DNA of 64,000 nucleotides from Vicinamibacterales bacterium. Lineage in GTDB: Bacteria; Acidobacteriota; Vicinamibacteria; Vicinamibacterales; UBA8438. Positions 15,301 to 61,229 of this stretch are shown one piece after another. Positions within the stretch are counted from its first letter, which is position 1; the number at the start of each line of letters is the position of its first letter. The position numbers were made by a program, and so were the translations under genes. The notes below the pieces were generated by a model, which saw only the letters and a program-made list of their open reading frames with translations, made no database searches and was not told the DNA's origin. The stretch lies in contig OZ250139.1 of assembly GCA_965237405.1 (NCBI GenBank), forward strand, positions 1,562,820 through 1,626,819, in the 5' to 3' direction.

Positions 15301-15417
15301 CCGTATCGAACGCGACACGAACGGTAATGGGATCGATGACCGCCTCTTTTTTTGACAAATTTCAGGCGTACGAACCGAGCCGTCTTCACCAAGTTGCAGT
15401 ATCTCTTCAGACATTAG
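12340..15417 (+). pseudogene. DUF5916 / CBM9-like outer-membrane protein with N-terminal TolB-N/FlgO-like domain; two apparent single-base frameshifts
   Basis: Signal peptide in the 12340 frame joins the VMPFTNISG frame if one G is removed at ~12507-12509; main frame 12332..15355 has DGRLDD and NPDFSQIESD..FFPELKPFFLEG; a plausible tail TNFRRTNRAVFTKLQYLFRH* lies out of frame after a T7 run near 15350. Confidence 0.7.
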
Positions 15418-15467
15418 GAGTGGCTTCGTGACTGGCTCCTAGTCTCGTCACATAATCGGTTCGAATC

Positions 15468-16601: not shown

Positions 16602-17790
16602 CGGACTCGACCGACAGCGGTACCGCCCGCTTCACCAATAGCTTCTCTCCTAGAGGCACTTCCCGTAGTAGCTTCACGATACGCTCTGCCGCACGACCAT
16701 CGCCGTAGGGATTCTCCATGCCAACGAGCGACTCGCAAAACGCCGGATCGACAGCACGTTTGAGTCCCGATCGGATGCTGCCGACCTCGGCCTCGACATC
16801 GATGATGTTGCGAGCTCGTTCGCGGCCCTGTTGCCGAATCCCGATGTTGACGCAGGGGAGTGCGAGCGCCGGCGTTTCCATGATCCCACTGCTTGAGTTA
16901 CCCAGCATGGCCGCGGCGTTCTGTAGCAGCGCCCAGTACATCGTCGGCCGAAGGTTGATACAAAGGGTTGTGTTGGGTCGAGCCTCGCAGAAGATCCGCG
17001 CGCGGCGGATCAGCTCTCGGCTTCCCGCATCGGCGTTCGGAAAACAAAACGCAACCGGCGCTTTGGTTTGTTCGAGTGCGCCGAACAGGGCAGCGGCCTC
17101 CCGAAGTGTGTCGCGGGCCAGGGTAACCGGATGGTAGGACACGACGACCGCGGGAGTCGAAGTGACGTCAAAGCCGATCTCTGCCGAGACCTCTACTCCG
17201 GAAGGTAGCTCCGATCGCCGCAGATGATCAAGTGAGGGCGCACCGACACAGTGAACACGCCACGCCTCCTCGCCCATCGCAAGTACACGACGGCGCGCGC
17301 GCACCGTCGACGTGAAGTGAAGGTGACTCATCTTGGTTAGGGCGTTACGAACCGCGTCGTCAACGGCGCCCTCGCTGATCTCACCGCCTTCGATGTGTGC
17401 GATTGGGATCCGCAGGGTCAAAGCCACCGAAGCCGGAGCGAGCACTTCATACCGATCAGCGACGAGCATCAGGATGTCGGGACGCTCACGACCGAGTAGA
17501 TCCGCCAGACCCATCGTGGCCACTCCGATCGTCTTGGCCATCCCTACGTCCGTATCCGAGCTGAGTAGGCACTCGACCCGGTGGTGGACCGGTAGCCCAT
17601 CACGCTCGATCTCTTGCTCAGCACGCCCGAACTCGTCGGTCAATTGAGCCCCGAGTGCGATCACCCGCAGATCAATCGTCGGTTCGTCTTCAAGGCTTCG
17701 TAGGACCCAGTGCAGATGACTGTAGTCAGCGCGCGAAGTTGTGACGACCCCGACCGTACGCTGGTGAGAAGACTCGTGAGATCGAGACAT
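16591..17790 (-). CDS. neuC: UDP-N-acetylglucosamine 2-epimerase (hydrolysing)
   Basis: VVTTSRADY, DRYE, HIEGGE, SYHPVT, PNADAG, GNSSSGI and NPYGDG motifs; start could be at 17823. Confidence 0.88.
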   Translation of the reverse strand: MSRSHESSHQRTVGVVTTSRADYSHLHWVLRSLEDEPTIDLRVIALGAQLTDEFGRAEQEIERDGLPVHHRVECLLSSDTDVGMAKTIGVATMGLADLLGRERPDILMLVADRYEVLAPASVALTLRIPIAHIEGGEISEGAVDDAVRNALTKMSHLHFTSTVRARRRVLAMGEEAWRVHCVGAPSLDHLRRSELPSGVEVSAEIGFDVTSTPAVVVSYHPVTLARDTLREAAALFGALEQTKAPVAFCFPNADAGSRELIRRARIFCEARPNTTLCINLRPTMYWALLQNAAAMLGNSSSGIMETPALALPCVNIGIRQQGRERARNIIDVEAEVGSIRSGLKRAVDPAFCESLVGMENPYGDGRAAERIVKLLREVPLGEKLLVKRAVPLSVESDGS

Positions 17791-18068
17791 GTATAGGGTG
17801 CTGGCGGTCACAGCGTCGAGCATGCCTGGAAAAGCTCATGATAATCCGTTACGGCATCTTGACGGATCCGATCGGTTTGCAGATCGAATGAGCCGGTCCA
17901 GCTGTCTGCCGGCGGGGAAATGGTGACGGTCATCTGCAACGACGACGGCCTGACAGCCTGAGCAATCAAGAACCGCGACCAACTACTGCTCACCGTGATC
18001 GCGTGCCGGTACGGCTGACCGGGGTTCTTTCCCGATTCAGAGATTTACCGAACGCGCGAACCAAAGGA

Positions 18069-19421
18069 TCACACGCCCGCAAGAGGCTCAAACGGGAACA
18101 CACCGGTGGCGTCGCCGAACCGCTCGGTGTTCACGCCGACCCGCTCTAACATCGCCATCAAAAGATTATTCATCGGCGTATCCTTCGAGTGACGAAGAAC
18201 GCGGCCGCCCCTGACTCCACCCGCGCCACCGACCAACACAAGCGGAAGGTCGATATGCGAGTGTTCGTTGGCGTCACTAATGCCCCCGCCATGTAGCACG
18301 AGCGAATGGTCAAGCAGACTACCGTCGCCGTCTGGTGTCGCCTTTAATTTGTCGAGAAAATGAGCGGTCAGCGTGATGTGGTACTGGTTAATCTTATGCC
18401 CCTGCTCGAACTTAACCGGGTCATGCTGATGGTGTGACACCGCGTGATGGGCCCCGTCGACACCAAGCTCAGGATAGGCGCGATTGGTTTGCTCCTTGCC
18501 GAGTGTGAAGACGAAAACCCGTGTGATATCAGCCTTAAAGGCAAGCGCCACTAGGTCGAACATCAACTTGGCGTGTTCGTCATAGGACTCGGGCACACCG
18601 ACCGGCCGGTCGGGTAGCTCAAGCGTCGACTCGCCATGCTGGCGCTCGGCGACCTGGAGCCGGCGCTCAATCTCACGCACGGAGTCAAAGTACTCGCTGA
18701 CACTATTCTTATCCGCAGGACTAAGCTGTGTCTTAAGGCGAGAAATGTCGGCCGTGACCCAATCCAGAATGCTGCGATCCTCCCGTATGCGAGCCAGTCG
18801 TTCTTCAGGCCGACCACCATCCCCAAACAGTCGTTGGAACACGACACGCGGATTTGTTTCGTGCGGATTCGGCGTCGTGGCCGTCCTCCACGAGATACTG
18901 TTGGTATAGACGCAGCTATAGCCGTTGTCGCAGTTACCGATGAGATAGGTCTGCTCCATGGCCAGTTCTAGCGACGTCAACGCGGTGTCACCGCCAATCT
19001 GCTGAGCCGCAATCTGGTCGGCCGTGGTGCCATTCTGCACGTCGGCGCCCTCGGTCTCCTTCGGATGCACACCGCTCAGCCATACAGTTCCGGCGCGCGA
19101 GTGCTCACCGTTGCCGTCACCGAGCGCCTCGGCCTGTTTCTGGCTCAGGCCGATCGGTACGATGACTTGGTCCTGAAACGGCGCGAGTGGACTCAATGTC
19201 GGTGAGAGTTCGACCATCGCACCGTCACCGGCTGGCTGCCAGTGGGACATCACGGCACCGTTTGGGATGTACACAAAGCCAAGGCGACGAACCGGCTTCG
19301 CCGCCGTCTTGGCGAGGGCCGACGCCGCAGGCACCATCGCGTCCAGCAATGGCAACGCCATTGTTACTCCCATGCCGTGGAGAAAGGTTCGACGTGGTAG
19401 AGCCTTCTTGGTGATGAACAT
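18069..19421 (-). CDS. DUF1552 domain protein (Tat-exported)
   Basis: MFITKKALPRRTFL twin-arginine leader; RLGFVYIPNG, CDNGYSCVY and HHAVSHH; directly downstream of the DUF1592 gene. Confidence 0.9.
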   Translation of the reverse strand: MFITKKALPRRTFLHGMGVTMALPLLDAMVPAASALAKTAAKPVRRLGFVYIPNGAVMSHWQPAGDGAMVELSPTLSPLAPFQDQVIVPIGLSQKQAEALGDGNGEHSRAGTVWLSGVHPKETEGADVQNGTTADQIAAQQIGGDTALTSLELAMEQTYLIGNCDNGYSCVYTNSISWRTATTPNPHETNPRVVFQRLFGDGGRPEERLARIREDRSILDWVTADISRLKTQLSPADKNSVSEYFDSVREIERRLQVAERQHGESTLELPDRPVGVPESYDEHAKLMFDLVALAFKADITRVFVFTLGKEQTNRAYPELGVDGAHHAVSHHQHDPVKFEQGHKINQYHITLTAHFLDKLKATPDGDGSLLDHSLVLHGGGISDANEHSHIDLPLVLVGGAGGVRGGRVLRHSKDTPMNNLLMAMLERVGVNTERFGDATGVFPFEPLAGV

Positions 19422-19432
19422 GACAGCGTCTC

Positions 19433-21850
19433 CTACTCAGCCTCGGCTAGCCTCATCTGAAACGGCGTGCTCTTGACGACGCCGACAATCAATGACGCCA
19501 GGCCGTAGTCGCTTGCAGCGGCCTCCCGCGTGATCTGTCGAACGGCTGGGGCATCATAGTATTCCAGGCCTCGACCAACTCCATAAGTCAACAGCTTCTC
19601 AGTCACGACCGTAGCAAACTGTTCCGGACTCCTCACTAATAGCCCGCGCAAATCGGCCGGGCCATCAAACGGTGTTCCATCAGGCATCGTGCCGGAGGCA
19701 TCGATAGGAGTCCCTCCCGGCATGTACCCTCGCCATCGCCCCACCGCATCGAAGTTCTCAAGTGCTAAGCCGAGCGGGTCCATTATCCGGTGACAACTGG
19801 CACACACGGGATTCGCGCGATGCTGTTCCATGCGCTCCCGCATCGCCAGCACCCGACCCGCGTCGGCATCGGACTCAAGTTCCGGCACGTTGGGTGGTGG
19901 TGGTGGTGGTGGTGTCCCCAAAACGTTCTCCAGTATCCACTTACCACGGCCCACAGGTGAGGTACGATCGGGATACGAAGTGACGGTCAGGATGCTGCCC
20001 TGGCCCAGCAGTCCCCGACGTATGTCGTCAGCGAGTGCCACCCGCCGAAAGTCGCTACCGTAGACACCCTCAATGCCATAGTGCTTGGCCAACCGCTCGT
20101 TCAGGAACGTGTAGTCCGCCGTTAGGAGCTGGGTAATGCTTCGGTCCTCGCGCAGGATGCTATCGAAGAACAGTTCAGTCTCGCGCACAAAATCCTGTCG
20201 AAGACTCTCACCGAAATGCGGAAAGATCACGTCAGACGGCAGCACTCCCGAGATGTTGCGCAAACGCAGCCATTGGCCGGCAAAGTTCGTTACGAGTGCC
20301 TCCGACCGAGGATCCGCAAGCATTCGTCGAACCTGGTGCTCAAGAATAGCTGGATCCCGAAGCTGCCCTTGCACGGCCACGGCCAATAGCTCGTCATCAG
20401 GAATGCTGCTCCACAGCAGAAACGAGACCCGCGATGCCAGCTCCAGATCGCCTAGCCGATAGGTGGTACCCGGCGTTGCATCGGACGGATCGGACACCAC
20501 GCGAAACAGAAAGTCTGGGCTCACGAGCAGCGCGCGGAGACCTCGCTCGATGCCCTGCTCGAAGCTGCCCGTCGCCCGACCCTCCGTGTAGAAAGTGAGC
20601 AGCTCTTCGAGATCCGCATCGGTGATCGGCCGCCGGTAGGCACGGCGTGCCAGCGTACCGAGCACCTGCTTGGCGCACGACGTCTCTTCGGATGGATTCG
20701 AGGGGGTGCAGATAAAAATCCGGCGACGGGTGGGGGTGTCCCCAATTCCAGACGGGCTGAACGGCCCCGTGATTCTCATCGTCCCGAGGTGTGGCTGGTA
20801 CATCAGGTAGTCGCCTTCACCATGTGGTCTCGCGAATGGCTGACGGACACTCTCGGGTAAAGCGTGGGTTTTCTCAATGAATGTCGCCGTCACGTCGCGG
20901 GGACCGGCTTCGACGGGCACGCGGACCTCGAGGTCATCCGGTCCACGGATGTATACAGACGATTGGCCGTTCTCCGAATCTGGTGGTCGGAGGTTGAAAA
21001 CTGTTGTCCGCTCGCCATCGATGCTCACCTCGAGTTGGTGCGGTTCTCGGATCGGAGCACCGGCGAACAGGTCGAGAAGCTGGATCTTGATATCGTATTC
21101 GCCATCGCGCGGAAAGTTGTACGTCACCGACATGCCACCGCGGGTGCCAAACGGTAACCCATCCCGATGTTGGTATTGCGACAGATCGGAGACGACACGA
21201 AACGTTTCACCGCTTGGTGCCATCGGCGATGCCCCCACGGCCAAACGGCTGATCTTTCGCGCCGCATTCATGTACCGCTCAAGTAGCGTGGGCGATACCT
21301 TTAGAACGCCCGCAATGTTGTCAAAGCCGTAGCTCTGGTCATCGGCGGGGACCAGCGCCGACACATCAATATCGAGCGTCAGCAGGTCGCGAATGGCGTT
21401 CTGATACTCCGTTCGGTTAAGACGATGTAACGGAACCGTACGGCCTGGGTTTGGCTGTGCAGCGGCCGCACGATCGATCCGAACCTCTAACCAGGACGCC
21501 AGATCGTCTAGCGCGGCCGAAGTTGGTCGTGGTCGTCCGGCTGGGGGCATCGAACCGGTCCGAAGTTTACGGATAACCGTTTCCCAAAGCTCCGCTCCGG
21601 CTGGAATGTTAGCCAGGTCCACCGACTGGAGCGAGACCGGAACCGTCCCCCTGGACCGCAATTCGTCGTTGTGGCAGGTGACGCAGTATTGATCAAGAAT
21701 TGCGTTCGGCGGATCAGTCGTCAAGCTCCGCTGCTCGGCCCCAGCGGTCATCAGGGGTCCCGATACGCACAAAAGAATCGTCAAAGATCCTAACCCCAGC
21801 CAGGAGCCGTTTCGCGATCGGCCGACGCCTCGCCTTTCTTGACCTATCAT
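19433..21850 (-). CDS. DUF1592/DUF1588/DUF1585 multi-domain cytochrome c-like protein
   Basis: Heme motifs CVTCH and CASCH; RLNRTEYQNAIRDLL, GFDN, LASRVSFLLWSSIPD and RTSPVGRGKW. Confidence 0.9.
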   Translation of the reverse strand: MIGQERRGVGRSRNGSWLGLGSLTILLCVSGPLMTAGAEQRSLTTDPPNAILDQYCVTCHNDELRSRGTVPVSLQSVDLANIPAGAELWETVIRKLRTGSMPPAGRPRPTSAALDDLASWLEVRIDRAAAAQPNPGRTVPLHRLNRTEYQNAIRDLLTLDIDVSALVPADDQSYGFDNIAGVLKVSPTLLERYMNAARKISRLAVGASPMAPSGETFRVVSDLSQYQHRDGLPFGTRGGMSVTYNFPRDGEYDIKIQLLDLFAGAPIREPHQLEVSIDGERTTVFNLRPPDSENGQSSVYIRGPDDLEVRVPVEAGPRDVTATFIEKTHALPESVRQPFARPHGEGDYLMYQPHLGTMRITGPFSPSGIGDTPTRRRIFICTPSNPSEETSCAKQVLGTLARRAYRRPITDADLEELLTFYTEGRATGSFEQGIERGLRALLVSPDFLFRVVSDPSDATPGTTYRLGDLELASRVSFLLWSSIPDDELLAVAVQGQLRDPAILEHQVRRMLADPRSEALVTNFAGQWLRLRNISGVLPSDVIFPHFGESLRQDFVRETELFFDSILREDRSITQLLTADYTFLNERLAKHYGIEGVYGSDFRRVALADDIRRGLLGQGSILTVTSYPDRTSPVGRGKWILENVLGTPPPPPPPNVPELESDADAGRVLAMRERMEQHRANPVCASCHRIMDPLGLALENFDAVGRWRGYMPGGTPIDASGTMPDGTPFDGPADLRGLLVRSPEQFATVVTEKLLTYGVGRGLEYYDAPAVRQITREAAASDYGLASLIVGVVKSTPFQMRLAEAE

Positions 21851-49329: not shown

Positions 49330-49534
49330 TGTCTCTTCTCAATTTACCCAGAAAGACCCTCGCTTCGGCTGCCACACTTCTTACAGTGGCGTCGGCGTGA
49401 GACGAGAACAACGGGTAGTGCAAGGGAATAGCCCCTTAGACTACGCACTAAGTGTCAGAAAAATGGAGGTGCCGCCAAAAAACCATCAAGTCCGGTTTCC
49501 AGGAAAGTCAGAACGGTTAGGCGCCGGCGAAAAT

Positions 49535-51386: not shown

Positions 51387-51491
51387 GCTACTAATCTATC
51401 ATTGTCGACAAGGATTTTCGAGTGACGGTGACCTACCGGGTAGCGCAAACGGACCGTTGCTTCAAACGATTACGCTAAGCACTTGAAAAAA

Positions 51492-51536
51492 TGGAGGCGG
51501 CGCCAGGATTTGAACCGGGGATGGATGTTTTGCAGT
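51492..51536 (-). repeat. att core: 3' half of tRNA-Cys(GCA), left island boundary
   Basis: Reverse complement ACTGCAAAACATCCATCCCCGGTTCAAATCCTGGCGCCGCCTCCA runs from the anticodon loop to CCA; 43 of 45 bases match 61185..61229; no 5' half present. Confidence 0.88.
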
Positions 51537-51641: not shown

Positions 51642-51663
51642 TTGGGCACAGTCTTGGGCACAG
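51642..51663 (+). promoter_or_regulatory. Putative integrase arm-type binding sites (TTGGGCACAG x2, 12-bp period)
   Basis: Direct repeat near the att core; related pairs at 61109..61130 and 61336..61356. Confidence 0.6.
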
Positions 51664-51670
51664 CACCCGC

Positions 51671-51696
51671 GTAACCCCCGTTCCCGTTGAACCGCC
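51671..51696 (+). repeat. Cassette-boundary element copy 1, with -35 TTGAAC (51687) and -10 TAGGCT (51710), 17-bp spacer
   Basis: GTAACCCCCGTTCCCGTTGAACCGCC, preceded by GCACCCGC. Confidence 0.85.
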
Positions 51697-51721
51697 CGCC
51701 GCCGCGCGCTAGGCTAGCGGT

Positions 51722-52255
51722 GTGTCTGAGGCACAGTCGATGAGTCGCATCGAAATCATCACTAACGACATTACGACACTGACGGTTGCTGCCATTGTGA
51801 ATGCCGCGAATGAAAGCTTGCTTGGTGGAGGTGGCGTCGATGGTGCCATTCATAGAGCTGCTGGACCAGCCTTGCTCGCTGAATGCCGAATGCTTGGTGG
51901 GTGTGCTACCGGAGCTGCGAAGATAACGGCTGGCTACGATCTCCCCGCGCGGCACGTGATTCATGCCGTCGGTCCACGTTGGCACGGTGGGACACGTGAC
52001 GAGTCTCGTTTACTAGCCGACTGCTATCGTCAGGCGCTTGAAATTGCGCGAACGCACAACCTGAAAACAGTGGCATTTCCGGCGATCAGTTGTGGAATTT
52101 ACGGCTATCCGGTGAAGGAGGCTGCCGGGATCGCGGTGCGAGAGGTGTCCCGGTTCTTGCGGCTGGAACCGAGCATTGAAAAGGTGTACCTCGTGTGTTT
52201 TGAGCCAAATGTTGAGGCCGCGTACCGCCAAGTACTTCAGTTGGCCGACTCGTAA
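51722..52255 (+). CDS. Macrodomain protein (O-acetyl-ADP-ribose deacetylase / ADP-ribosylhydrolase, YmdB-like)
   Basis: [33 protein letters not shown] and [13 protein letters not shown]; alternative start ATG 51740; stop TAA lies inside element copy 2. Confidence 0.95.
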
Positions 52256-52324
52256 CCCCCGTCGCCGTTGAACCGCCAGCCGCGCACTCGCGTGAGCCGT
52301 AACACCCGTCCCCATTGAACCGCC
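52252..52324 (+). repeat. Cassette-boundary element copies 2 and 3 back to back; copy 3 has -35 TTGAAC (52315) and -10 TAGGCT (52338), 17-bp spacer
   Basis: GTAACCCCCGTCGCCGTTGAACCGCC-A-GCCGCGCACTCGCGTGAGCC-GTAACACCCGTCCCCATTGAACCGCC. Confidence 0.85.
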
Positions 52325-52368
52325 CGCCGTCCCGCGGTAGGCTACACACCTCACCGGTCGCTGTCGGT

Positions 52369-52896
52369 ATGGACCAGGACATCCGTCACACCCGCAAACA
52401 GTGCCGACACATTCTGTGGCTACAACTCCATCTCCTGCTCGTCGCACTTCTGTGTCCGGAGTTGGTGTCTGGCCAGGTCGGCGACACCTTCTCTGGCGCG
52501 GTTATCCGTGTGGCCGATGGCGACACGATCTCGGTCCGGCGTGACGGTGCAACGGTGCGCATCAGACTCGACGGGATCGACACACCAGAATCCGACCAGC
52601 CGTTTGGGACACGTGCGAGTGCCTTTACGTCCGCGCAAGTTCTCAATAAGCGTGTCACTGTGCATGTGCGTGATGTAGACCGGTACGGACGGCTCGTCAG
52701 TCGGGTGCAAATCGATGACCAGGACCTCAGTGTGGCGTTGGTGACGGCGGGACTCGCGTGGCACTACACCCGGTATTCCGATGACCCCGTGTTGGCACGG
52801 GCGGAAGTGCAGGCTCGAACGACCAGAACAGGGCTTTGGAGTCAGCCGTCGCCGATGCCACCGTGGGAATTTCGACGACGTTCCCGTCCCCGTTGA
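52369..52896 (+). CDS. Thermonuclease (SNase) family protein, secreted
   Basis: VADGDTI, IRLDGIDTPE..QPFG, DRYGRLV, GLAW and GLWS..PPWEFR; start placed at ATG 52369. Confidence 0.93.
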   Translation: MDQDIRHTRKQCRHILWLQLHLLLVALLCPELVSGQVGDTFSGAVIRVADGDTISVRRDGATVRIRLDGIDTPESDQPFGTRASAFTSAQVLNKRVTVHVRDVDRYGRLVSRVQIDDQDLSVALVTAGLAWHYTRYSDDPVLARAEVQARTTRTGLWSQPSPMPPWEFRRRSRPR

Positions 52897-52898
52897 CC
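52883..52898 (+). repeat. Partial cassette-boundary element copy 4, overlapping the SNase stop codon
   Basis: CCCGTCCCCGTTGACC; its TGA is the stop of the SNase gene; followed by the inverted repeat ACTTTTGT...ACAAAAGT. Confidence 0.65.
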
Positions 52899-53055
52899 TG
52901 CTACTTTTGTACCGGGGGACAAAAGTCGGTAACAACCCCCGATCGCACCCTCAGTCTGCGAGTGGGAGGGTGCGTCCTCATCCTCGACGGGGTGCATCCA
53001 CCCGTCACGGTCAACCCCCTACACAACCCGTCGAAGGAGCCGTAAACTGATCGGC

Positions 53056-54615
53056 ATGGCTCCTTCAATACTCCGTCGGTTGGCACTCGCCTGGATGGTC
53101 GCGTTACTGGTGGGGGCCGCTCCGCTCGCCCAGACGCCCGAACCTGCTCAAGACGACGTCAAGGCGCTCCGAATCCTTGCAAATGCCGGGGACGGGGAGG
53201 CGCAGTACCTCCTTGGCATGAGGTACTACCACGGCGAGGATGTACCGCAGGACCACGTCGAAGCGGCGGCGTGGTTTCGCCAATCCGCGGAGCAAGGGAA
53301 TGCGGACCCGCAGTACACCCTTGGCGTGATGTACGCCAACGGCGAGGGCGTACCGCAGGACTTCGGCGAAGCGGCGGCGTGGTTTCGCCAAGCCGCGGAG
53401 CAAGGGGATGCGGACGCGCAGTACTACCTTGGCGAGGCGTACCGCACCGGCCGGGGCATGCCGGAAGACGACGTCGAAGCGGCGGCGTGGTATCGCCAAG
53501 CCGCGGAGCAAGGGTTTGCGGCCGCGCAGTACACCCTTGGCGTGATGTACGCCAACGGCGAGGGCGTGCCGCAGGACTTCGGCGAAGCAGCGGCGTGGTA
53601 TCGCCAAGCCGCGGAGCAAGGGGATGCGGACGCGCAGTACACCCTTGGCGTGATGTACGCCACCGGCGAGGGCGTGCCGCAGGACTTCGGCGAAGCAGCG
53701 GCGTGGTATCGCCAAGCCGCGGAGCAAGGGGATGCGGACGCGCAGTACAACCTTGGCGTGGCGTACCGCACCGGCCGGGGCGTGCCGGAGGACGACGTCG
53801 AAGCGGCGGCGTGGTATCGCCAAGCCGCGGAGCAAGGGGATGCGGCCGCGCAGTACACCCTTGGCGTGATGTACGCCAACGGCGAGGGCGTGCCGCAGGA
53901 CTTCGGCGAAACGGCGGGGTGGTATCGCCAAGCCGCGGAGCAAGGGCATGCGGCCGCGCAGTACTACCTTGGCGTGGCGTACGCCAACGGCGAGGGCGTG
54001 CCGCAGGACTTCGGCGAAGCGGCGGCGTGGTATCGCCAAGCCGCGGAGCAAGGGGATGCGGACGCGCAGTACAACCTTGGCGTGATGTACGTCAACGGCG
54101 AGGGCGTGCCGCAGGACTTCGGCGAAGCGGCGGCGTGGTATCGCCAAGCCGCGGAGCAAGGCCATGCGGAGGCACAGAACAACCTTGGCGTGATGTACGC
54201 CACCGGCGAGGGCGTGCCGGAGGACTTCGTCGAAGCGGCGGCGTGGTATCGCCAAGCCGCGGAGCAAGGGGATGCGGACGCGCAGTACAACCTTGGCGTG
54301 GCGTACCGCACCGACCGGGGCGTGCCGGAGGACTTCGTCGAAGCGGCGGCGTGGTATCGCCAAGCCGCGGAGCAAGGGGATGCGGCCGCGCAGTACAGCC
54401 TTGGCGTGATGTACGTCAACGGCGAGGGCGTGCCGCAGGACTTCGGCGAAGCATACAAATGGTTCAACCTCGCGACGACCTATGCCGACGCGTCGCAACG
54501 AGAAGAGCACGCCGAGGCGCGTGACACCGTCGCCGAGCATCTCACCCCGGAGCAACGCGCCGAAGGCCAGAAGCTGGTGCGGGAGTGGATCGCCGCGCAC
54601 CCGCGTGAGCCGTAA
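53056..54615 (+). CDS. Secreted Sel1-like repeat protein (12 repeats)
   Basis: Signal peptide; 36-aa units AQYxLGVMYxxGEGVPQDxxEAAAWYRQAAEQG encoded by near-identical 108-bp repeats; ends AAHPREP* inside element copy 5. Confidence 0.95.
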   Translation: MAPSILRRLALAWMVALLVGAAPLAQTPEPAQDDVKALRILANAGDGEAQYLLGMRYYHGEDVPQDHVEAAAWFRQSAEQGNADPQYTLGVMYANGEGVPQDFGEAAAWFRQAAEQGDADAQYYLGEAYRTGRGMPEDDVEAAAWYRQAAEQGFAAAQYTLGVMYANGEGVPQDFGEAAAWYRQAAEQGDADAQYTLGVMYATGEGVPQDFGEAAAWYRQAAEQGDADAQYNLGVAYRTGRGVPEDDVEAAAWYRQAAEQGDAAAQYTLGVMYANGEGVPQDFGETAGWYRQAAEQGHAAAQYYLGVAYANGEGVPQDFGEAAAWYRQAAEQGDADAQYNLGVMYVNGEGVPQDFGEAAAWYRQAAEQGHAEAQNNLGVMYATGEGVPEDFVEAAAWYRQAAEQGDADAQYNLGVAYRTDRGVPEDFVEAAAWYRQAAEQGDAAAQYSLGVMYVNGEGVPQDFGEAYKWFNLATTYADASQREEHAEARDTVAEHLTPEQRAEGQKLVREWIAAHPREP

Positions 54616-54625
54616 CACCCGTCCC
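54592..54625 (+). repeat. Cassette-boundary element copy 5, cut by IS6
   Basis: GCCGCGCACCCGCGTGAGCCGTAACACCCGTCCC followed directly by the IS6 terminal repeat. Confidence 0.8.
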
Positions 54626-55432
54626 GGTATTGTCAGGTTGAAGGCGAAGGGATCAGAGTAGTGGGATGGACAGCGACGCCTCCAGCTACCACGGATATCG
54701 ATTCCCCGCCGCCATCATCGCCCACGCCGTCTGGCTCTACTTTCGGTTCAGCCTGAGTTTCCGGAATGTCGAAGACCTCCTCGCCCAGCGCGGGATCACG
54801 GTCACTTACGAGACCATTCGTCAATGGTGTCGAACATTCGGTTGTGCTTACGCCCGACGACTCCGGAAACGCCGTGGCCACCTCGGCGATACGTGGCATT
54901 TCGACGAACTGTTCGTGACGTTGCAAGGCCGCCGACAGTATCTGTGGCGCGCCGTCGATGAGGACGGCGACGTCCTCGACATCCTCGTGCAAGCGCGACG
55001 AAATCGGCGAGCCGCTGTCCGATTCTTCCGGAAGCTGCTGAAGCGCCAGGGATGTGTCCCGCGCCGGTTGGTCACGGACAAGCTGCGGAGCTACCCAGCA
55101 GCCCGCCGCATCGTGATGCCTTCTGTGGTCCACGTCACGGACCAGTACGCCAATAACCGCGCTGAAGTCTCGCATCAACCGACTCGACAGCGCGGACGCC
55201 AGATGCGCCGCTTCAAGTCGACCACCCATCTGCAACGCTTCGCGTCCGTCCACGGCGCCATACAGAATCTCTTCCGGGTCGGTCGACATTTGCTGCGGTC
55301 GGTGCATCACCGTTCGCTTCGCACGCGAGCGTTCGTCGAATGGGAGGCGGTGACGTGTGCCTGCTGACTGACGGCGGAGGCCCGGCTCGATCGGGGAGAA
55401 AAGAGCCCTTCTTCGATCAAGTTGACAGTGCC
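54626..55432 (+). mobile_element. IS6-family insertion sequence (807 bp)
   Basis: Terminal IRs GGTATTGTCAGGTTGA and TCAAGTTGACAGTGCC enclose the transposase; no target duplication seen. Confidence 0.88.
54666..55367 (+). CDS. IS6-family DDE transposase
   Basis: YHGYRFP..IIAHAVWLYFRFSLSFRNVEDLL, WHFDE, YLWRAVD, VTDK and NNRAEVSH. Confidence 0.95.
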   Translation: MDSDASSYHGYRFPAAIIAHAVWLYFRFSLSFRNVEDLLAQRGITVTYETIRQWCRTFGCAYARRLRKRRGHLGDTWHFDELFVTLQGRRQYLWRAVDEDGDVLDILVQARRNRRAAVRFFRKLLKRQGCVPRRLVTDKLRSYPAARRIVMPSVVHVTDQYANNRAEVSHQPTRQRGRQMRRFKSTTHLQRFASVHGAIQNLFRVGRHLLRSVHHRSLRTRAFVEWEAVTCAC

Positions 55433-55523
55433 CCGCGGCATACAATGCCCTCGATCTCAACCTGACAAGCCATGGCACTAGCAGTTGGCTCGCAACTCGT
55501 CGACCTTTCAAAAAGGCTTTAGC

Positions 55524-57530
55524 GTGGATCATCGTCCATGGCTCGTCTTTCTCGTCTGGTGCAGCGTCGTGACGCTGTCACCTGGCCAGGCCTGGGCTCA
55601 ATATGGCGCGACCGATGGCGAGTGGCGCAGCTACGGCGGTGACCTGGGCAGCACCAAGTACTCGCCGCTCGACCAGATCGACGCCGGCAACTTCAGCGAC
55701 CTGCGACCCGCATGGCGGTGGCAGTCGGCTGACGGGCTGCTCGATCTGGACGCGATCAGAGCGAAGCTACCGCGCCTGGGGGCTTCCCGCCTCCCGGGGC
55801 GCCAATTCGGAATCCGGATGTTCCAGGCTACGCCGCTGATGATTGACGGAGTGCTCTATATCTCGACGGCGCTGCACCAGGTGGCGGCGATCGACGCCGG
55901 AACCGGCGAGCCCCTCTGGGTCCACGATCCGGAGGCCTACCTCGCGGGCCTGCCGACTCACTTCTACAATTCGCGGGGTGTCGCGTACTGGGCCGACGGT
56001 GACGATGCACGGATCTTCTTCGGCACCAACGGGGGCTACTTGCTGGCCCTCAATGCTCGCACCGGAGAGCCAATTCGAGACTTCGGAGACGACGGACGCG
56101 TCGATCTCATGGAGGACATTCCGCGGGCCACCCGTGGTGAAACCAATCACAACGGGCGAACCCTGGTCGGGGTCGCCTCGCCGCCGATCGTGGTGCGCGA
56201 CGTCGTCGTCACGCCAACGATCATCTCCGATCGCGCGATCCGCAAGGAAGCGCCACCCGGGTGGCTGAAGGGCGTCGACGCTCGCACCGGCGAGGTCAAG
56301 TGGATATTCCGCACCGTGCCACAGGCGGACGATTTCGGCGTCGAGACCTGGCTAAACGAATCGTGGCGATACTCGGGGAATACCAACGTCTGGACGATGT
56401 TGAGCGCCGACAACGAGCTTGGGTACGTTTTCCTGCCGACCGGTGCCCCGACCGGCGACTACTACGGCGGCCACCGACCAGGTGACAACCTGTTCTCGCA
56501 GAGCGTCGTCGCCCTCGACATCGAAACCGGCCAGCGGATGTGGCACTTCCAGGCCGTCCACCATGGGGTCTGGGACTACGACTTTCCCGCCGCCCCGAAC
56601 CTCGTCGACATCGTGGTCGACGGTCGCCGCATCAAGGCGGTCGCTCAGGTCAGCAAGCAGGGCTTCACCTACGTCGTCGACCGACAGACCGGTGAACCGG
56701 TGTGGCCGATCGAGGAGCGTCCCGTCGAAACCGACACCAACCTCGAGGGTGAAGTCCTCTCTCCGACCCAGCCGTTCCCGACCAAGCCGCCGCCGTTCGA
56801 GTATCAGGGCGTCACCATCGACGATCTGGTCGACTTCACCCCCGAGATCCGGGCGATGGCCGTTGAGGCGGTGAAGGCGTTCCGACTCGGGCCGCTTTAC
56901 TCACCGCCGATGCTTAGCGTGGAGGGTGAATTGCAGGGAACCATTCAGCGCCCGCATGTCGGAGGTGGCGCAAGCTGGACCGGCGCCGCAGTCGATCCAG
57001 AAACCGGCATGCTTTATGTGCCATCGGAAAACCGATTCTCGGTAATCAAGTACTACACACCCGATCTGGCCCGAGGTGGGAACCTCCGGTTTACGATGCG
57101 CGGACTCGCGGCCGGGACCCAGCCCCAGATGCCTCAGGGGCTGCCGCTGCTGAAGCCGCCGTACTCACGAATGACGGCGATCGACCTGAACGAAGGCCAG
57201 CACGCTTGGATGCAGGCCAACGGCAACGGCGACCGGTACCGGAATCATCCGCTGCTGCGGGATCTCGACTTGTCCCCGCTGGGCGGAGAGGGACACGGGG
57301 GACCGGTTCTCACCAAGACACTGCTCGTGAGCGCGCTCTCGGCTGGCGGCCGCGACGGTGGTCCTCGGCTCGTGGCCCGCGACAAGACCACCGGTGAGAT
57401 CGTGGGGTCGGTCGATCTGCCGGCCGGCGCCATCGGCACGCCGATGACCTATCTGCACGAGGGCAAGCAGTACATCGCGCTGACGATCGGCGGCGACGTG
57501 CCCGAATTGATCGCGCTGGCGCTGCCATGA
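55524..57530 (+). CDS. PQQ-dependent dehydrogenase, glucose/quinate dehydrogenase-like
   Basis: Paralog of the 43168 gene: KYSPLDQI, WHFQAVHHGVWDYD and SPTQPFP; start placed at GTG 55524 (ORF track starts at 55485). Confidence 0.9.
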   Translation: MDHRPWLVFLVWCSVVTLSPGQAWAQYGATDGEWRSYGGDLGSTKYSPLDQIDAGNFSDLRPAWRWQSADGLLDLDAIRAKLPRLGASRLPGRQFGIRMFQATPLMIDGVLYISTALHQVAAIDAGTGEPLWVHDPEAYLAGLPTHFYNSRGVAYWADGDDARIFFGTNGGYLLALNARTGEPIRDFGDDGRVDLMEDIPRATRGETNHNGRTLVGVASPPIVVRDVVVTPTIISDRAIRKEAPPGWLKGVDARTGEVKWIFRTVPQADDFGVETWLNESWRYSGNTNVWTMLSADNELGYVFLPTGAPTGDYYGGHRPGDNLFSQSVVALDIETGQRMWHFQAVHHGVWDYDFPAAPNLVDIVVDGRRIKAVAQVSKQGFTYVVDRQTGEPVWPIEERPVETDTNLEGEVLSPTQPFPTKPPPFEYQGVTIDDLVDFTPEIRAMAVEAVKAFRLGPLYSPPMLSVEGELQGTIQRPHVGGGASWTGAAVDPETGMLYVPSENRFSVIKYYTPDLARGGNLRFTMRGLAAGTQPQMPQGLPLLKPPYSRMTAIDLNEGQHAWMQANGNGDRYRNHPLLRDLDLSPLGGEGHGGPVLTKTLLVSALSAGGRDGGPRLVARDKTTGEIVGSVDLPAGAIGTPMTYLHEGKQYIALTIGGDVPELIALALP

Positions 57531-57807
57531 ACCCCAGAGTTGGCGTTGGTACATCGACCCATTGAATTCACCAGCACTTCATACTCTTAGCTTTCGCATA
57601 CGATTCAGACACACACGGTAAAGAGTAAGCACGCAGTCTGTCTCCGGCACGAATCCTACTATTCAATCAAGAAGTTCGTGATTGTCCAATCGGCAGGATT
57701 CTCTCCAGAGCCCTTCGTTTCGCAATAAAAATTGGTTCATATGGTGGCTCCAAAGGCGTTCTGAGAATCAACGTAGGACACCACCACGGTACCTTAAAAG
57801 CGGAAGA

Positions 57808-57857
57808 CGGTTCAACGGGGACGGGGGTTACGGCTCACGCGGGTGCGCGGCGTCCCA
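57808..57857 (-). repeat. Cassette-boundary element copy 6 (minus strand) with Sel1-tail stub WDAAHPREP*
   Basis: Reverse complement TGGGACGCCGCGCACCCGCGTGAGCCGTAACCCCCGTCCCCGTTGAACCG. Confidence 0.85.
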
Positions 57858-57888
57858 TTAGCGGGTGCTTCAAGAGCCCTCGTTTGCG

Positions 57889-59109
57889 CTAGTTCCTCTT
57901 GCGCAGCTTCACCCGAGCGTGTTCGCTGTACGCCAGATACTTGTTCACTGCTTCCCGCTGGTCATCCGGCCAGGCGTCCGAGTCGGCAAGCTTCTTCAGT
58001 TTGCTCGATGAGAGCTGATCGACTTGGTCCCAGAGTCCGATCGACTTGAGGACACGCTCAAGCTCGAGCCGCGGTTCGCTCCCTGCTTTTGGCACGTCAA
58101 CCGATGTGGTAGTGGAGACAGTGGCGTAGTGTTCAGCACCGTAGATCGAGGCATTGCCGGTCTCGGCCGAGTACGCCGTCAGCTTCTCCCGTATCTCGTC
58201 AGCCCGTTCATCCATCTCACCTGTAATACGCTGCTTCTCGTCCCTCAGGCTCACGAGTTCATCCACCAGCGCTGACGCCTCGGAGGCGGTGATGACCGAG
58301 ACTAGTAGTGTCTCCTCCTGGTTCTCCATTTCGTAGAGGTTCGCGAACTCTGGGCACAGCGGACGGTATTCACACCAGTCGCAGAGCGCGCTGGTCTTCG
58401 TCGGTAGGTTCCTTCTCGCCACCGCAGCATCAACGGTCTCGATCAGACTCGCGGTCTGTTCGGCCATGTTCTGCAACTGTTCATCGGTCCGCTGCGACCA
58501 CACATCCTCGTCAAATCGCACGAAATGCCAGACCAGGTCGATCTTCTTCAGGTCGGGATAGCGCTGCTTGATTCCGAGCATGTAGAGCGCCAACTGCCGG
58601 TCATTCTTGGTTGCGTTCGGCGTAGGTAACTTGCCGCTGGTCTTGTAGTCGTGGATCACGAAGTGTTTATTGCCGACTTTCTCAAGACGGTCTATGTAAC
58701 CCATCACCTTCCCGCCACCGGGCAGGTCTATGAAGACCTTGCACTCCAGGTCGATGGTGATGCCCTGGTCGAACGGCTGATAGCGATCCCAGTACTGCTC
58801 GACCCACTTCTGTCCGTTCGACCGGTAGTGCTCGACCTCCAACTCTTGCTTGATGACGCGAATCTCGTCTTCCCATTTCGCTTCCCACAGCGCCTGGTAC
58901 TTCTGCACGAGTTCTTCCTTGGTCGCAACGCGGCCGTCGCGTGCCAACCTGTACAGCCATTCCAGAGCGTCGTGGACCCTGCTCCCCACAAATGCCTCGA
59001 TGGTGGTGCCGAGGGGTGCCTGGACTTGGTCCACATACCTCAACTTGTACTGGAACGGGCAGTTTTCGTAACTGGAAAGCCGGGAGTGCGAGTAGAGAGT
59101 CGAGGACAT
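57889..59109 (-). CDS. PD-(D/E)XK nuclease, Cas4/AddB/RecB-like, with a putative four-cysteine Fe-S staple
   Basis: SHSRLSSYENCP..Y, GSRVHDALE, GYIDRL, IHDYKT, QLALY and CDWCEYRPLCP. Confidence 0.9.
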   Translation of the reverse strand: MSSTLYSHSRLSSYENCPFQYKLRYVDQVQAPLGTTIEAFVGSRVHDALEWLYRLARDGRVATKEELVQKYQALWEAKWEDEIRVIKQELEVEHYRSNGQKWVEQYWDRYQPFDQGITIDLECKVFIDLPGGGKVMGYIDRLEKVGNKHFVIHDYKTSGKLPTPNATKNDRQLALYMLGIKQRYPDLKKIDLVWHFVRFDEDVWSQRTDEQLQNMAEQTASLIETVDAAVARRNLPTKTSALCDWCEYRPLCPEFANLYEMENQEETLLVSVITASEASALVDELVSLRDEKQRITGEMDERADEIREKLTAYSAETGNASIYGAEHYATVSTTTSVDVPKAGSEPRLELERVLKSIGLWDQVDQLSSSKLKKLADSDAWPDDQREAVNKYLAYSEHARVKLRKRN

Positions 59110-59183
59110 TAATTGCGATAGACTGGCTTCGTCTCATGCTCCCACTATGGTGGCGAGCGACCCGATCCTACCGCGGCGCACCG

Positions 59184-59226
59184 GGCGGTTCAACGGGGAC
59201 GGGGGTTAGTTACGTGGGTGGGCGGC
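59184..59226 (-). repeat. Cassette-boundary element copy 7 (minus strand), with -35 TTGAAC and -10 TAGGAT (59165-59170), 17-bp spacer
   Basis: Reverse complement GCCGCCCACCCACGTAACTAACCCCCGTCCCCGTTGAACCGCC; the promoter faces the PD-(D/E)XK gene. Confidence 0.85.
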
Positions 59227-59569: not shown

Positions 59570-59619
59570 CATGGAACACTTGATAACATAAATAGGTCTA
59601 TTTATTATCTGCATGTCAC

Positions 59620-59805
59620 ATGAGCCCCAGAAAGCTCTACAACTTTCTGATCGATTCGGACCTCGCTGTGGGGTTGAAGACCGTCAAGGCCCGCGACGGA
59701 ATCTCGGAGAGCGAGCAAGTCCTGAGGGCGATCAGGGACTGGCTGAGCAAGAAGGGGGTCATGAAAACGGGACGCACGCGGGTGGTACCCCGCGCGCGCC
59801 CCTAA
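59620..59805 (+). CDS. Ribbon-helix-helix (CopG-like) regulator
   Basis: KLYNFLID strand followed by helices ...GISESEQVLRAIRDWL; directly upstream of the integrase. Confidence 0.7.
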   Translation: MSPRKLYNFLIDSDLAVGLKTVKARDGISESEQVLRAIRDWLSKKGVMKTGRTRVVPRARP

Positions 59806-59909
59806 ACCCGTCAGCAGCGTGCACTGCCGACGAGCCTGCCGCGTATTTCTCACACACGCAGACTCGCCGGCCTCACCCGGCACCGAACGGCACCAGGGGG
59901 GCAACCGTA

Positions 59910-61077
59910 ATGGGCAGTCTCTACAAGAGGACGTACAAGACTTCGGACGGTGAGATCAGGGAGCGGCCAACTTGGTGGCTGAAGTATCACCAGAATGGCC
60001 GGGCGATTCGCGAGAGCACTGGCACCACCAAGGAGACCGTCGCCAAGCGGATGCTGCGGCTCCGGGAGGGCGACGTCGAGCGTGGCATTCCCGTCAACCC
60101 GCGCATGGACCGGCTGACGTTTAAAGAGACCGCCCAGGACGTGATCCACGACTACGAAACGAACGGCAAGAAGTCGCTTCGGGTGCTGCGCCAGCGCATC
60201 AATCACCTGCGGCCCTTCTTCGGCGAGGGCCGACGAATGGCCGGTGTTCGAGTCAGCGACATCCGCGCTTACATCGTGCACCGGCAACGCTCGTACATCG
60301 TGACCGGCATGGGTGACCACCAACGTAAACGGCAACCATCGAACGGCCAGATCAACCGGGAACTGACCACCTTGAAGCGGATGTCCAGCCTCGCTGTCCA
60401 GTCCAAGAAGCTGGCGCGGAAGCCCCACATCCCGCTACTAGCCGAGGCTCCGGCACGGTTCCGGGTTCTTCGAGCGGGAACAGCTGGACGCGGTGTGTCG
60501 GCATCTCCCCTCCCCTATTACGGCGGTGGTGCGGTTCGCCCACCTCACAGGGTGGCGGGTCAACTCGGAGGTCCTAGCCCTTCGATGGGCCAACGTCGAT
60601 TGGACCGGAGAGAGCATCCGCCTGGAGGCCGGTACGACGAAGAGCGGAGAGCCCCGCGTATTCCCGTTCACCGACGAACTTCGGGACCTCCTGCGCGAGC
60701 GATGGGCCGGGCACGAGGAACTGAGACGCTCGGGCACGATCTGCCCGTCCGTGTTCCATCGGGCCGGTAAGCCAATCAAGAGCTTCATCAAGATCTGGCG
60801 ATCCGCGTGCAGGGCCGCCGGCTGTCCGGGCCGCATCCCCCATGACCTCCGGCGAACAGCCGTCCGAAATCTCGAACGCGCCGGCGTGCCACGCTCCACG
60901 GCTATGGCGATGGTTGGACACAAGACTGAGTCCATCTACCACCGATATGCCATCGTTGACGAAACCTCCCGCCGGGAGGCGGCTCAAAAAGTGAACCTGT
61001 TTGGTCGCGAGAACAGTTCCGAACACCGCCCACCACTCAGCCGAGCCACCGGCACTGAGAAGCCCAGGGAAAGTTGA
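59910..61077 (+). pseudogene. int: Phage-type tyrosine integrase with a single +1 frameshift at ~60459
   Basis: N-part MGSLYKR..WWLKY..RESTGT..INRELTTLKR; removing one T gives APARSGFFEREQL, continuing to TGWR, TTK, HDLRR, GH and YHRY catalytic residues. Confidence 0.88.
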
Positions 61078-61130: not shown

Positions 61131-61184
61131 GACCCTCTCAGCCGGTCACCGGCGTCGAAAACCGTCGAAAACGCTGATGAAAAA

Positions 61185-61229
61185 TGGAGGCGCCGCCAGG
61201 ATTTGAACCGGGGATGGAGGTTTTGCAGT
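61185..61229 (-). repeat. att core: 3' half of tRNA-Cys(GCA), right island boundary
   Basis: Reverse complement ACTGCAAAACCTCCATCCCCGGTTCAAATCCTGGCGGCGCCTCCA; no D-arm or 5' acceptor strand adjacent. Confidence 0.88.

Follow-up and report, generated by a model that had tools for sequence, protein, structure and literature searches.

Here, we describe a short repeated sequence that marks the joints between gene modules in Vicinamibacterales (Acidobacteriota), taking as our starting point a stretch of 64,000 nucleotides, hereafter the window, from contig OZ250139.1 (positions 1,562,820 to 1,626,819, forward strand) of the Vicinamibacterales bacterium assembly GCA_965237405.1. An asymmetric core stands at the module joints, the modules themselves recur in reshuffled form across genera, the joints between them fall in the core, a small gene of the DUF5681 family co-occurs with the repeat, and integron features are missing. 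That modules have been exchanged is well supported by sequence comparison. The reading we favour, and hold to be somewhat probable, is a composite one, namely that the repeat is a boundary element carrying a promoter and that modules change places at it, homologous exchange being slightly favoured as the route; the promoter function, the use of the core as the exchange site and the role of the DUF5681 protein are what we infer. A first-pass annotation of the window had proposed a capture site that builds single-gene arrays, of which the core-bounded units recurring in new contexts have stood up, while capture as such can still only be proposed, no enzyme having been found.

The genome that holds the window (G000) is one contig of 4.65 Mb with 60.8% G+C. 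The 26-mer GTAACCCCCGTCCCCGTTGAACCGCC has five copies in the window with one or two mismatches each (51671-51696, 52252-52277 and 52299-52324 on the plus strand, 57806-57831 and 59184-59209 on the minus strand), against an expectation of 0.00 from 100 shuffles, and two partial copies bring the total to seven. Seven were also counted at first pass, with the same two marked as partial or cut and with one start given as 57808 rather than 57806; the further claim that none lies outside the island holding them is right for the window and wrong for the genome. Genome-wide, the 26-mer has 39 copies at up to three mismatches (10 forward, 29 reverse) and the 17-nt core CCCCGTCCCCGTTGAAC has 54 at up to two, with no match to the reversed pattern in either search. 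The 54 cores form about a dozen clusters and some single sites, the clusters including those at about 80, 849-869, 1258-1263, 1424-1480, 2311-2320, 2954-2967, 3503-3527 and 4222-4233 kb and the one in the window. Intergenic placement was found for 48 of them against 63 of 300 random positions, as judged by a crude gene caller based on the G+C content of third codon positions, which is noisy, many modules being of atypical composition, and from which we use only this count and the mirror comparison given below.

The full boundary element is some 75-110 nt long and consists of an optional stub of the end of a Sel1-repeat gene, a TAA, the core and a promoter-like part. When copies are aligned on the core (51 in the alignment), conservation is 85-100% at core positions 0-16, 76-83% in the upstream TAAC, 78-83% in the CGCC that follows the core, 48-78% in the spacer and -10 region and 41-70% in the stub. 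The core is built of two CCCCGT hexamers and TGAAC, almost invariant; two hexamers are present in 103 contexts, one in 32 (a figure that includes chance matches of the searched 10-mer) and three in none. The GTTGAAC within it is 91-100% conserved and fits the GTTRRRY consensus, as had been noticed at first pass, and would double as the -35 box. What lies upstream is a reading-frame end, ...AEAQRLAREWDAAHPR followed by D or E and a stop (...AREWDAAHPR[D/E]-stop). This end is intact in the Sel1 gene of the window and in several further Sel1 genes; elsewhere it persists as a non-coding stub of 12-35 nt behind an unrelated gene. These stubs vary at synonymous positions (GAG/GAA), as if derived from different genes, and give the element a ragged 5' limit, with 0, 12, 23 or 35 nt of stub retained. 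The 20-nt extension found at 52279-52298, 54592-54611 and 57832-57851 (minus strand), once taken for a separate box, does not survive as such: it encodes a Sel1 end (AAHPREP and stop) or is the stub of one. Sel1 is also the commonest gene family beside cores, with 19 open frames in five genomes. Each of the three stops, TAA, the TGA within GTTGAAC and the TAG within the -10 box, is in a different frame, so that all frames are closed, and the open frames that end near a core stop mostly at -4 (nine cases) and +12 (eight cases).

Folding of the 51 aligned copies with 45-nt flanks in RNAalifold gave 0 pairs and an energy of 0, a repeat search found no inverted symmetry within a copy, and Rfam scans gave no match at the copies. 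An origin of the core as a tRNA or tmRNA remnant was rejected, the only likeness being 11-12 nt of the tmRNA 3' end, which we take as chance. As a separate observation, one element of at least 820 nt (97.9% alike in its two copies) starts right after the GTTGAACCGCC of two cores, at 1303822 and 4028528 of G000, that have different upstream genes, and it looks like an insertion sequence (IS) that has inserted site-specifically into the core.

The evidence for exchange comes from comparing the modules between genomes. Core-bounded modules, each of one to three genes, are found again in other genera at 91-99% identity, with their order shuffled. The SNase unit of the window, for instance, has a duplicate at 2311384-2311962 of the same genome that is 99.0% identical over 616 nt, starts 23 nt ahead of one core, reaches 14 nt into the following one, and has different flanks; the unit carrying the PD-(D/E)XK nuclease gene is found in G016, which belongs to another genus, at 96.0% over 1415 nt, from core to core and again with different neighbours. 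The units of one array in G011 are dispersed over G000, at 2.95, 0.857, 0.854, 3.526, 3.14, 0.08, 1.11, 1.425 and 1.437 Mb. A unit of NfeD and SPFH genes is 98% identical between G000 and G011, again of different genera, as against 87% and 81% in repeat-free genomes of G000's own genus, where homology ends before the repeat. Beyond these, the cargo includes a sirtuin-like gene, methyltransferases, a ferredoxin, katG, a SelO-like gene, an RND efflux operon, DNA methylases and a TonB receptor, and katG is accompanied by the element in G040 and G011 and lacks it in G000 (katG 89% identical).

Homology between genomes tends to end at the core. Of the 36 ends of 18 non-repetitive matches (at least 90% identity, at least 400 nt) that G000 shares with nine related loci, a set from which two overlapping loci were excluded, 16 fall 50 nt or less from a core and 23 fall 120 nt or less. 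The shifted controls averaged 2.0 for the narrower limit, with at most 8 in 500 trials, and 4.8 for the wider, with at most 11. In pairs that share only the downstream gene, similarity is lost between -23 and +8 of the core start; in those that share only the upstream gene, it is mostly lost between +8 and +25 (full range -36 to +49). The variable spacer and -10 region thus go with the downstream gene and the stub with the upstream gene, which places the joint inside the invariant core, with no finer placing.

Public metagenomes, four runs that were all used as assembled contigs, give further data on the modules; parts of the window that a run did not cover were not counted as evidence. In a seawater run, pieces of the PD-(D/E)XK unit have a depth of 97-127x against 0-8x for the chromosomal flanks, and the module therefore resides there in other, commoner genomes. 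A contig joint in two runs, 57857 to 59182, removes exactly this unit and may have originated in a back-to-back pair of copies elsewhere. Another, 51717 to 55515, seen in runs X15 and X18, sets the promoter-like part of a core directly ahead of the pyrroloquinoline quinone (PQQ)-dependent dehydrogenase gene and fits a form without the IS that separates them in the window.

The part of the element downstream of the core resembles a promoter. Among 136 distinct copies, counted after excluding those with a hairpin element behind, TAnnnT occurs exactly 17 nt after TTGAAC in 63, while any other spacing from 10 to 25 accounts for 0-7. The inner letters of this putative -10 box vary (TAGGCT in 28, TAGGAT in 10, TACGCT in 6, others) around a fixed T, A and T; TAGRRT is reported as the -10 consensus of high-G+C actinomycetes. 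The 17-nt spacer is G+C-rich, about half of the copies run on with CGCCCGCCG...GCGG and then TAGGCTAGAC, and there is often a shared leader, ...CACCGTTCGTTGTTGTGGTCGGAGGA, ending in GGAGGA before the start codon. In 98 of 145 copies, a same-strand frame of 100 codons or more begins 40-260 nt downstream, compared with 68 of 145 in the mirror control. The genes behind the promoter-like sequence include those for Macro, SNase, PD-(D/E)XK, NfeD, katG, ferredoxin and SelO-like proteins, among others. With TTGAAC as a -35 box within the core, the element probably carries its own promoter, and it may combine stop signal, promoter and ribosome site in one piece. This promoter aspect is an addition to what the first-pass annotation had proposed.

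The repeat has a narrow and patchy distribution. Searching 41 related genomes for a 21-mer at up to two mismatches found 11-46 copies in seven (G000 41, G006 46, G009 11, G011 25, G016 46, G022 20 and G040 16), one or two copies in five and none in 29; G040 belongs to another family of the same order, and five of the 10 other genomes of G000's genus are repeat-free. An even sample of the class (201 genomes) held only three with 10 or more copies and 12 with a single match at up to two mismatches. Exact matches in GTDB species genomes comprise 36 stretches, nearly all titled as metagenome-assembled genomes (MAGs) of Vicinamibacterales or Vicinamibacteria, the remainder coming from a few other MAGs, some on short contigs, and IMG/VR held no exact match of the 21-mer. 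The lineages with the element are a few of the marine Vicinamibacterales. A sequence so short, identical across genera and absent from close relatives, must either have been transferred or be read by something that has. The organism itself is present in runs X15 and X18, as pieces of 1.7-2.5 kb with 0-12 differences at a depth of about 25-35, where the macro-domain gene shows single and the SNase gene about double depth (57), in keeping with the two copies of the latter in the genome. At the core, depths sum to 4876-20912 in these two runs (flanks 25-35) and to 11024 in the seawater run, and the element must therefore be very abundant in those communities.

One gene family was found to track the repeat. 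It is a frame of 99 residues that adjoins cores in five genomes and has an N-terminal DUF5681 motif (Pfam, 33.3 bits, cut-off 27.5). Among the 41 relatives, the gene is found in exactly the seven repeat-rich genomes (E of 1e-8 or below, 53-93% identity; G000 7, G006 9, G009 1, G011 5, G016 6, G022 6, G040 1), it is absent from the five genomes with one or two cores, and three of the 34 others give weak or partial matches (G002 40%, G033 34%, G038 limited to the N-terminal 50 residues). Of the 201 genomes in the class sample, five have it, namely all three repeat-rich genomes and, as weak or partial matches, G033 and G038 among the other 198. The 99-residue form stops at the TAA just before a core and a form of 104-106 residues at the TGA of GTTGAAC. 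From 80 metagenome loci, we examined 44 (those with a match reaching residue 80 or beyond, plus two distant ones; 36 excluded), and in the 42 that could be judged, two contigs ending too early, a full core lies at or after the stop in 16, a half core in nine and none in 17. The protein has a basic N-terminus and is predicted to form three helices, with low confidence (predicted local distance difference test, pLDDT, 58.7); it shows no known catalytic motif, and its look-alikes are viral DUF5681 proteins. In the accessible part of the literature, the domain appears as an entry in a phage virion proteome, with no function given there. The core is better conserved than the -10 box, and therefore a protein presumably reads the core; the DUF5681 protein is the best candidate because its gene ends at the core and its range of genomes matches that of the repeat. 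It could accordingly be pictured as a small DNA-binding protein acting either as a regulator or as a recombination recognition factor.

In its fullest form, the gene lies in a unit of about 520 nt directly behind a core, with a second CCGTCCCCGTTGAAC after the unit. It opens with a hairpin, C[G/T]CTACTTTTGTA.CGGG.TACAAAAG, and continues with some 150 nt of leader, the frame and a 33-nt right end, ...CGCGGTGCA[C/T]CCGAG. An element of 105-170 nt with fixed ends, which we call 'H', shares with it the hairpin, the right end and the second 15-nt half-core, and looks like a miniature of the larger unit; the unit itself may be a very small mobile element without a recognisable transposase. Units of about 520 nt are seen at 119004-119303 of G000 (minus strand; equivalent to 2004-2303 of locus L092), at 8520-9035 of L109 and at 1220-1700 of L111 (reverse strand). 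Partial tmRNA matches at 2397-2546 (plus strand) of L092 and 1906-2055 (minus strand) of L109, with 27.8 and 28.5 bits against a gathering score of 47, have an integrase beside them and a DUF5681 gene shortly downstream. They probably represent what is left of the att sites of islands that target ssrA, and G000 has its intact tmRNA gene at 2451071-2451422. At 1623-1706 (minus strand) of L092, equivalent to 118623-118706 of G000, is a sequence like domains V-VI of a group II intron (31.5 bits, gathering score 40, E 0.013), about 300 nt behind a core with a hairpin and next to an IS6 fragment. Also in G000, at 2308871-2310211 (minus strand), a DEAD-box helicase gene in a segment of 51% G+C that is 91% shared with G040 is flanked by a hairpin-type core and a DUF5681 gene.

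Putting these parts together, the element would end translation of the upstream gene and give the downstream gene a housekeeping-type promoter and ribosome site, making each module its own expression unit; the core would be the place where modules of one to three genes join and swap; and integrase-bearing islands beside tRNA genes would carry the arrays between cells. The arrays are located both in such islands and in variable regions. As to the vehicles, tRNA genes lie at or near five clusters (tRNA-Pro at 848359, tRNA-Gly at 1263258, tRNA-Glu at 1418647, tRNA-Lys at 4235452 and tRNA-Cys at the window), and G004, which is repeat-free, ceases to be syntenic at about 848258, immediately ahead of the tRNA-Pro at which an array starts; ordinary tRNA-targeting islands are thus the likely vehicles, with the cores organizing their cargo.

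No recombinase was found to track the repeat among those tried, namely IntI, Y1 HUH and two integrase families adjacent to cores, serine recombinases, DDE enzymes and IS91-type enzymes not having been searched; the co-occurring recombinase or HUH gene suggested at first pass did not materialize. The integron integrase model TIGR02249 reaches at best 102.6 bits in G000 (cut-off 265) and no more than 84.3 in G006, G011, G016, G022 and G040. Y1 HUH transposases of the RAYT type (REP-associated tyrosine transposases, PF01797; REP, repetitive extragenic palindrome) were rejected, being absent from G006, G009, G011, G022 and G040, five of the seven repeat-rich genomes, and they are abundant in the repeat-poor G003 and the repeat-free G004. 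The integrase family of the window's island (16 matches in G000 and 15 in G016 to window 60493-61077, with 66 Phage_integrase matches in G000 in total) and that of the integrase beside the core at 118986 of G000 (119561-120679) were rejected in turn, both being equally present in genomes without the repeat, and relatives of the latter sit beside tRNA- or tmRNA-like ends. The integrases near cores belong to unrelated families, and the largest arrays lie 75-200 kb from any tyrosine recombinase.

Exchange by RecA-type recombination at the invariant stretch of 17-30 nt is somewhat likelier than exchange by a dedicated enzyme, because no such enzyme was found and the site has no dyad symmetry, and homologous exchange at the invariant core would explain the same data. 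The alternative, possible but on present evidence doubtful, is a dedicated site-specific cassette system in which a factor cuts and rejoins inside the core, and units leave as circles and reinsert at other cores. The factor might be a recombinase that has escaped recognition, or the DUF5681 protein acting together with an enzyme of the host, giving an integron-like function with an unrelated site and enzyme; more specifically, (CCCCGT)2-TGAAC might be the site, the DUF5681 protein the recognition factor working with a catalytic partner still to be found, each cassette having its promoter, which would let captured genes be expressed at any landing site, and the DUF5681 elements being selfish cassettes. 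A core conserved far above its flanks and identical across genera and two families would suit such a system, as would joints within the core, the back-to-back copies at 52252 and 52299 with similar joints in public contigs, and the presence of other insertion sequences at the same spot of the core. So would the DUF5681 unit or its miniature standing behind a core and followed by a second half-core, as after integration at a 15-nt segment of identity, and the co-occurrence of the gene with the repeat (seven of seven repeat-rich genomes against three weak matches in 34; three of three against two weak or partial in 198). The site-specific account has to contend, however, with the failure of any of the recombinases tried to track the repeat, the distance of the largest arrays from tyrosine recombinases, a site without dyad or hairpin, and a candidate factor of 99 residues with no known catalytic motif and a poor structural model. 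That the element spreads by itself, as a 'mobile promoter' akin to MITEs (miniature inverted-repeat transposable elements) or as the solo, outward-reading end of a DUF5681 mini-element, is unlikely; shared modules would then end at the element only because it is the sole sequence common to unrelated regions. It would account for the same promoter-like sequence ahead of unrelated genes, a pattern of homologous promoters before non-homologous genes already described in the accessible part of PMC3575422, for katG with and without the element, for the miniature derivative of the DUF5681 unit and for the patchy range among close relatives. It sits badly, though, with the lack of terminal inverted repeats or a hairpin, the ragged 5' limit and synonymously differing stubs, and with whole modules, both flanking copies included, being shared at 95-99%; nor did flank comparisons with repeat-free relatives yield a conserved gene pair found with and without the element.

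Less probable again is that the core is a regulon signal only, an operator for a protein such as DUF5681 with no part in recombination, the modules being shuffled by islands and insertion sequences. The conserved stretch does lie at about -36 to -52 of the putative promoter, overlapping the -35 box, a small basic helical protein co-occurs with it, and insertion sequences are very abundant in G000 (one of 1.44 kb has 13 copies at about 100% identity). An operator alone, however, leaves unexplained why homology ends at cores, why some copies have no -10 box and why second half-cores stand behind inserted units; as an additional function of the core, it can be compatible with the composite reading. 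Hardly credible, finally, is an array of integron attC sites without an integrase (a CALIN, or cluster of attC sites lacking integron integrases), for which the GTTRRRY match, the genes that stop within the element and the co-orientation of the arrays might speak, but against which stand the low scores of the IntI model, the absence of pairing in 51 aligned copies and a conserved part of 26-45 nt where attC has 57-141 nt. The integron reading was rejected on the absence of IntI and of a hairpin, in agreement with the first-pass view that the element is not attC and has no long palindrome. Several observations also weigh against the composite reading. The related loci were picked for having cores and are thus an ascertained sample, for which the shifted control corrects in part; 20 of the 36 homology ends lie more than 50 nt from any core; some modules share only their gene and not its flanks (for example L034 2234-3182); the joint from 57857 to 59182 has only 22 matching letters on its shorter side; and no clean pair of filled and empty sites in a syntenic region emerged when the array and single-copy flanks were compared with repeat-free relatives, the regions being non-syntenic or IS-rich. 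The co-occurrence of DUF5681 could be trivial if it is merely the commonest module. As to the promoter, about half of the copies have no -10 box (65 of 136, spacings of 16-18 considered), and a generic sigma-70 scan makes no promoter call at the element, because TAGGCT shares only three of six letters with TATAAT.

The arrangement resembles known module arrays bounded by short conserved sites; should it have an enzyme of its own, it would count as a new kind. The attC sites of integrons are 57-141 nt long, with an imperfect palindrome (R''-L''...L'-R') that folds as a hairpin, and their cassettes are as a rule promoterless. Like integrons, the arrays described here are co-oriented, consist mostly of single unrelated genes, often have a site that overlaps the stop codon and contains GTTRRRY, occur in different order across genomes and have insertion sequences inside their sites; unlike them, they come with no IntI that we could find, a non-palindromic site of 26-45 nt without a hairpin and a putative promoter for the next gene, and they are many and scattered, with no platform of attI and integrase. 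Some elements of the REP, REPIN and Correia types carry promoters or overlap gene ends, and REP/REPIN-RAYT and Correia-type MITE families share with the present repeat that they are short, intergenic, present in tens of copies and patchy among relatives. The repeat differs from REP/RAYT in having no hairpin or inverted repeat and in the absence of Y1 from five of seven repeat-rich genomes, and the boundary element differs from a MITE in its lack of inverted repeats and its ragged 5' limit.

The pdif sites of plasmids are 28-bp dyads (11-6-11) that alternate or are inverted in orientation around modules. The present site, by contrast, is asymmetric, consisting of a direct hexamer repeat and TGAAC with no inverted symmetry, its flanking copies are direct, the setting is chromosomal islands and a putative promoter is present; a Xer/dif reading was ruled out on this site shape only, the genome's own dif site not having been sought. 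As far as the accessible parts of the sources go, dif modules (XerC/XerD) of Acinetobacter plasmids are non-integron accessory modules with short conserved sites at their borders, and they are like the present ones in being small and shuffled, in their case among replicons, in lacking an element-borne recombinase and in having sites targeted by certain insertion sequences (PMC6449649, PMC13141974, PMC10132070). Putative mobile promoters, that is highly similar promoters ahead of non-homologous genes, are described as common to genomes in the portion available of Nijveen, Matus-Garcia and van Passel (2012, PMC3575422), a portion that treats the pattern and not a module boundary. In the present case, near-identical promoter-like sequence does stand ahead of non-homologous genes, but the element is found at both module ends and includes a gene-end stub, and cross-genome homology ends within it. 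Literature searches on Vicinamibacter, sponge and Acidobacteria, Sel1 and DUF5681, covering main texts, returned no description of the repeat.

Bacteria are known to build exchangeable arrays of single genes chiefly by way of integrons and, as recognised more recently, of dif modules, and a third arrangement seems to be present here in a poorly studied, uncultured group, with a different site build, no recognisable recombinase and a putative promoter at the joints. If exchange is site-specific, this would be a new recombination system and would offer the first testable role for DUF5681, a phage domain that is widespread and has no known function. Should the modules be exchanged homologously at a portable promoter, some 30 conserved nucleotides would organize a cross-genus pool of accessory genes, among them nucleases, a macro domain, a sirtuin-like gene, methylases, katG and genes for efflux. 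On either reading, the core offers a handle for cassette-targeted PCR or for mining this pool from reads.

The features of the island in the window, in window coordinates, are as follows, the -35 and -10 boxes being putative.
51487-51536, minus strand: left direct repeat of the island, the 3' half of a tRNA-Cys-like sequence (50 nt, 96% identical to 61180-61229)
51664-51715, plus strand: copy 1, with stub CACCCGCG, TAAC, core at 51676-51692, -35 box TTGAAC at 51687-51692, 17-nt spacer and -10 box TAGGCT at 51710-51715
51740-52255, plus strand: Macro-domain gene (PF01661, E 2.2e-47)
52252-52277, plus strand: copy 2, without promoter part, followed directly by the stub of copy 3
52279-52343, plus strand: copy 3, with Sel1-end stub at 52279-52298, TAAC, core at 52304-52320, -35 box at 52315-52320 and -10 box TAGGCT at 52338-52343
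52369-52896, plus strand: SNase gene (PF00565, E 9.1e-25)
52882-52898, plus strand: copy 4, with core variant TCCCGTCCCCGTTGACC (repeat search)
52899-53016, plus strand: decayed miniature 'H' element behind copy 4 (from sequence; second half-core intact in relatives)
53056-54615, plus strand: Sel1-repeat gene with 12 repeats of 108 nt (PF08238, E 7.6e-130)
54612-54625, plus strand: copy 5, truncated after GTAACACCCGTCCC (repeat search)
54630-55468, plus strand: IS6/IS240-family insertion sequence interrupting copy 5 (inverted repeats at 54630-54653 and 55445-55468)
54666-55367, plus strand: IS6/IS240 transposase (PF13610, E 1.1e-35)
55485-57530, plus strand: PQQ-dependent dehydrogenase gene behind the IS (PF01011)
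57806-57851, minus strand: copy 6, with the 26-mer at 57806-57831 and a Sel1-end stub at 57832-57851, no -10 box being recognisable behind it
57889-59109, minus strand: PD-(D/E)XK nuclease gene between copies 7 and 6 (PF12705, E 1.3e-31)
59165-59209, minus strand: copy 7, with the 26-mer at 59184-59209, -35 box at 59188-59193, 17-nt spacer and -10 box TAGGAT at 59165-59170
59613-61077, plus strand: tyrosine integrase of the island, frameshifted (59613-60770 and 60493-61077) and divergent from copy 7
61180-61229, minus strand: right direct repeat of the island, tRNA-Cys-like 3' half (repeat search)

The copies that flank the macro, SNase, Sel1 and PD-(D/E)XK units are in direct orientation, as arrays are in general co-oriented, and Pfam confirmed the first-pass identification of these single, unrelated genes, the Sel1 gene with 12 repeats. 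Two other early observations were equally sound: copies 2 and 3 are back to back, 47 nt apart, and so form an 'empty' unit of 47 nt, and the copy at 54612 is cut by an IS6-type element, whose inverted repeats adjoin it. The stop codon of the Macro gene (TAA, 52253-52255) is the TAA of copy 2, while the SNase frame runs into copy 4, which is partial (52883-52901, an 84% match to a 19-mer), and stops at the TGA of its GTTGA. The 'H' element behind copy 4 has a hairpin, CTACTTTTGTACC...GGACAAAAGT, a second hairpin and the right end ...GGGGTGCATCCA, and finishes in a decayed second half-core, CCCGTCACGGTCAACC (53001-53016).

The island has the structure of a tRNA-linked element, with direct repeats of the 3' part of a tRNA and a tyrosine integrase at one end; the tRNA-Cys island recognised at first pass is thus real in its tRNA-Cys-like 3'-half repeats, even if the boundary element is not private to it. 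No whole tRNA was found at either island repeat by ARAGORN or Rfam. An intact tRNA-Cys lies 2.8 kb past the window's end, next to an integrase that is 55% identical, and the island in the window is therefore one of a tandem set at tRNA-Cys. A third, 20-nt piece of the tRNA-Cys-like repeat at 49458-49477, 2 kb to the left of the island, suggests a further, decayed island between 49478 and 51486. Of the remaining minor features, the region from the end of the PQQ dehydrogenase gene to copy 6 (57531-57805) is A+T-rich and holds no convincing gene, and a frame of 25 codons follows copy 6 on the minus strand. The 12 tandem 108-nt units of the Sel1 gene (53080-54567) are 62-89% alike in DNA, and this likeness indicates a recent internal expansion.

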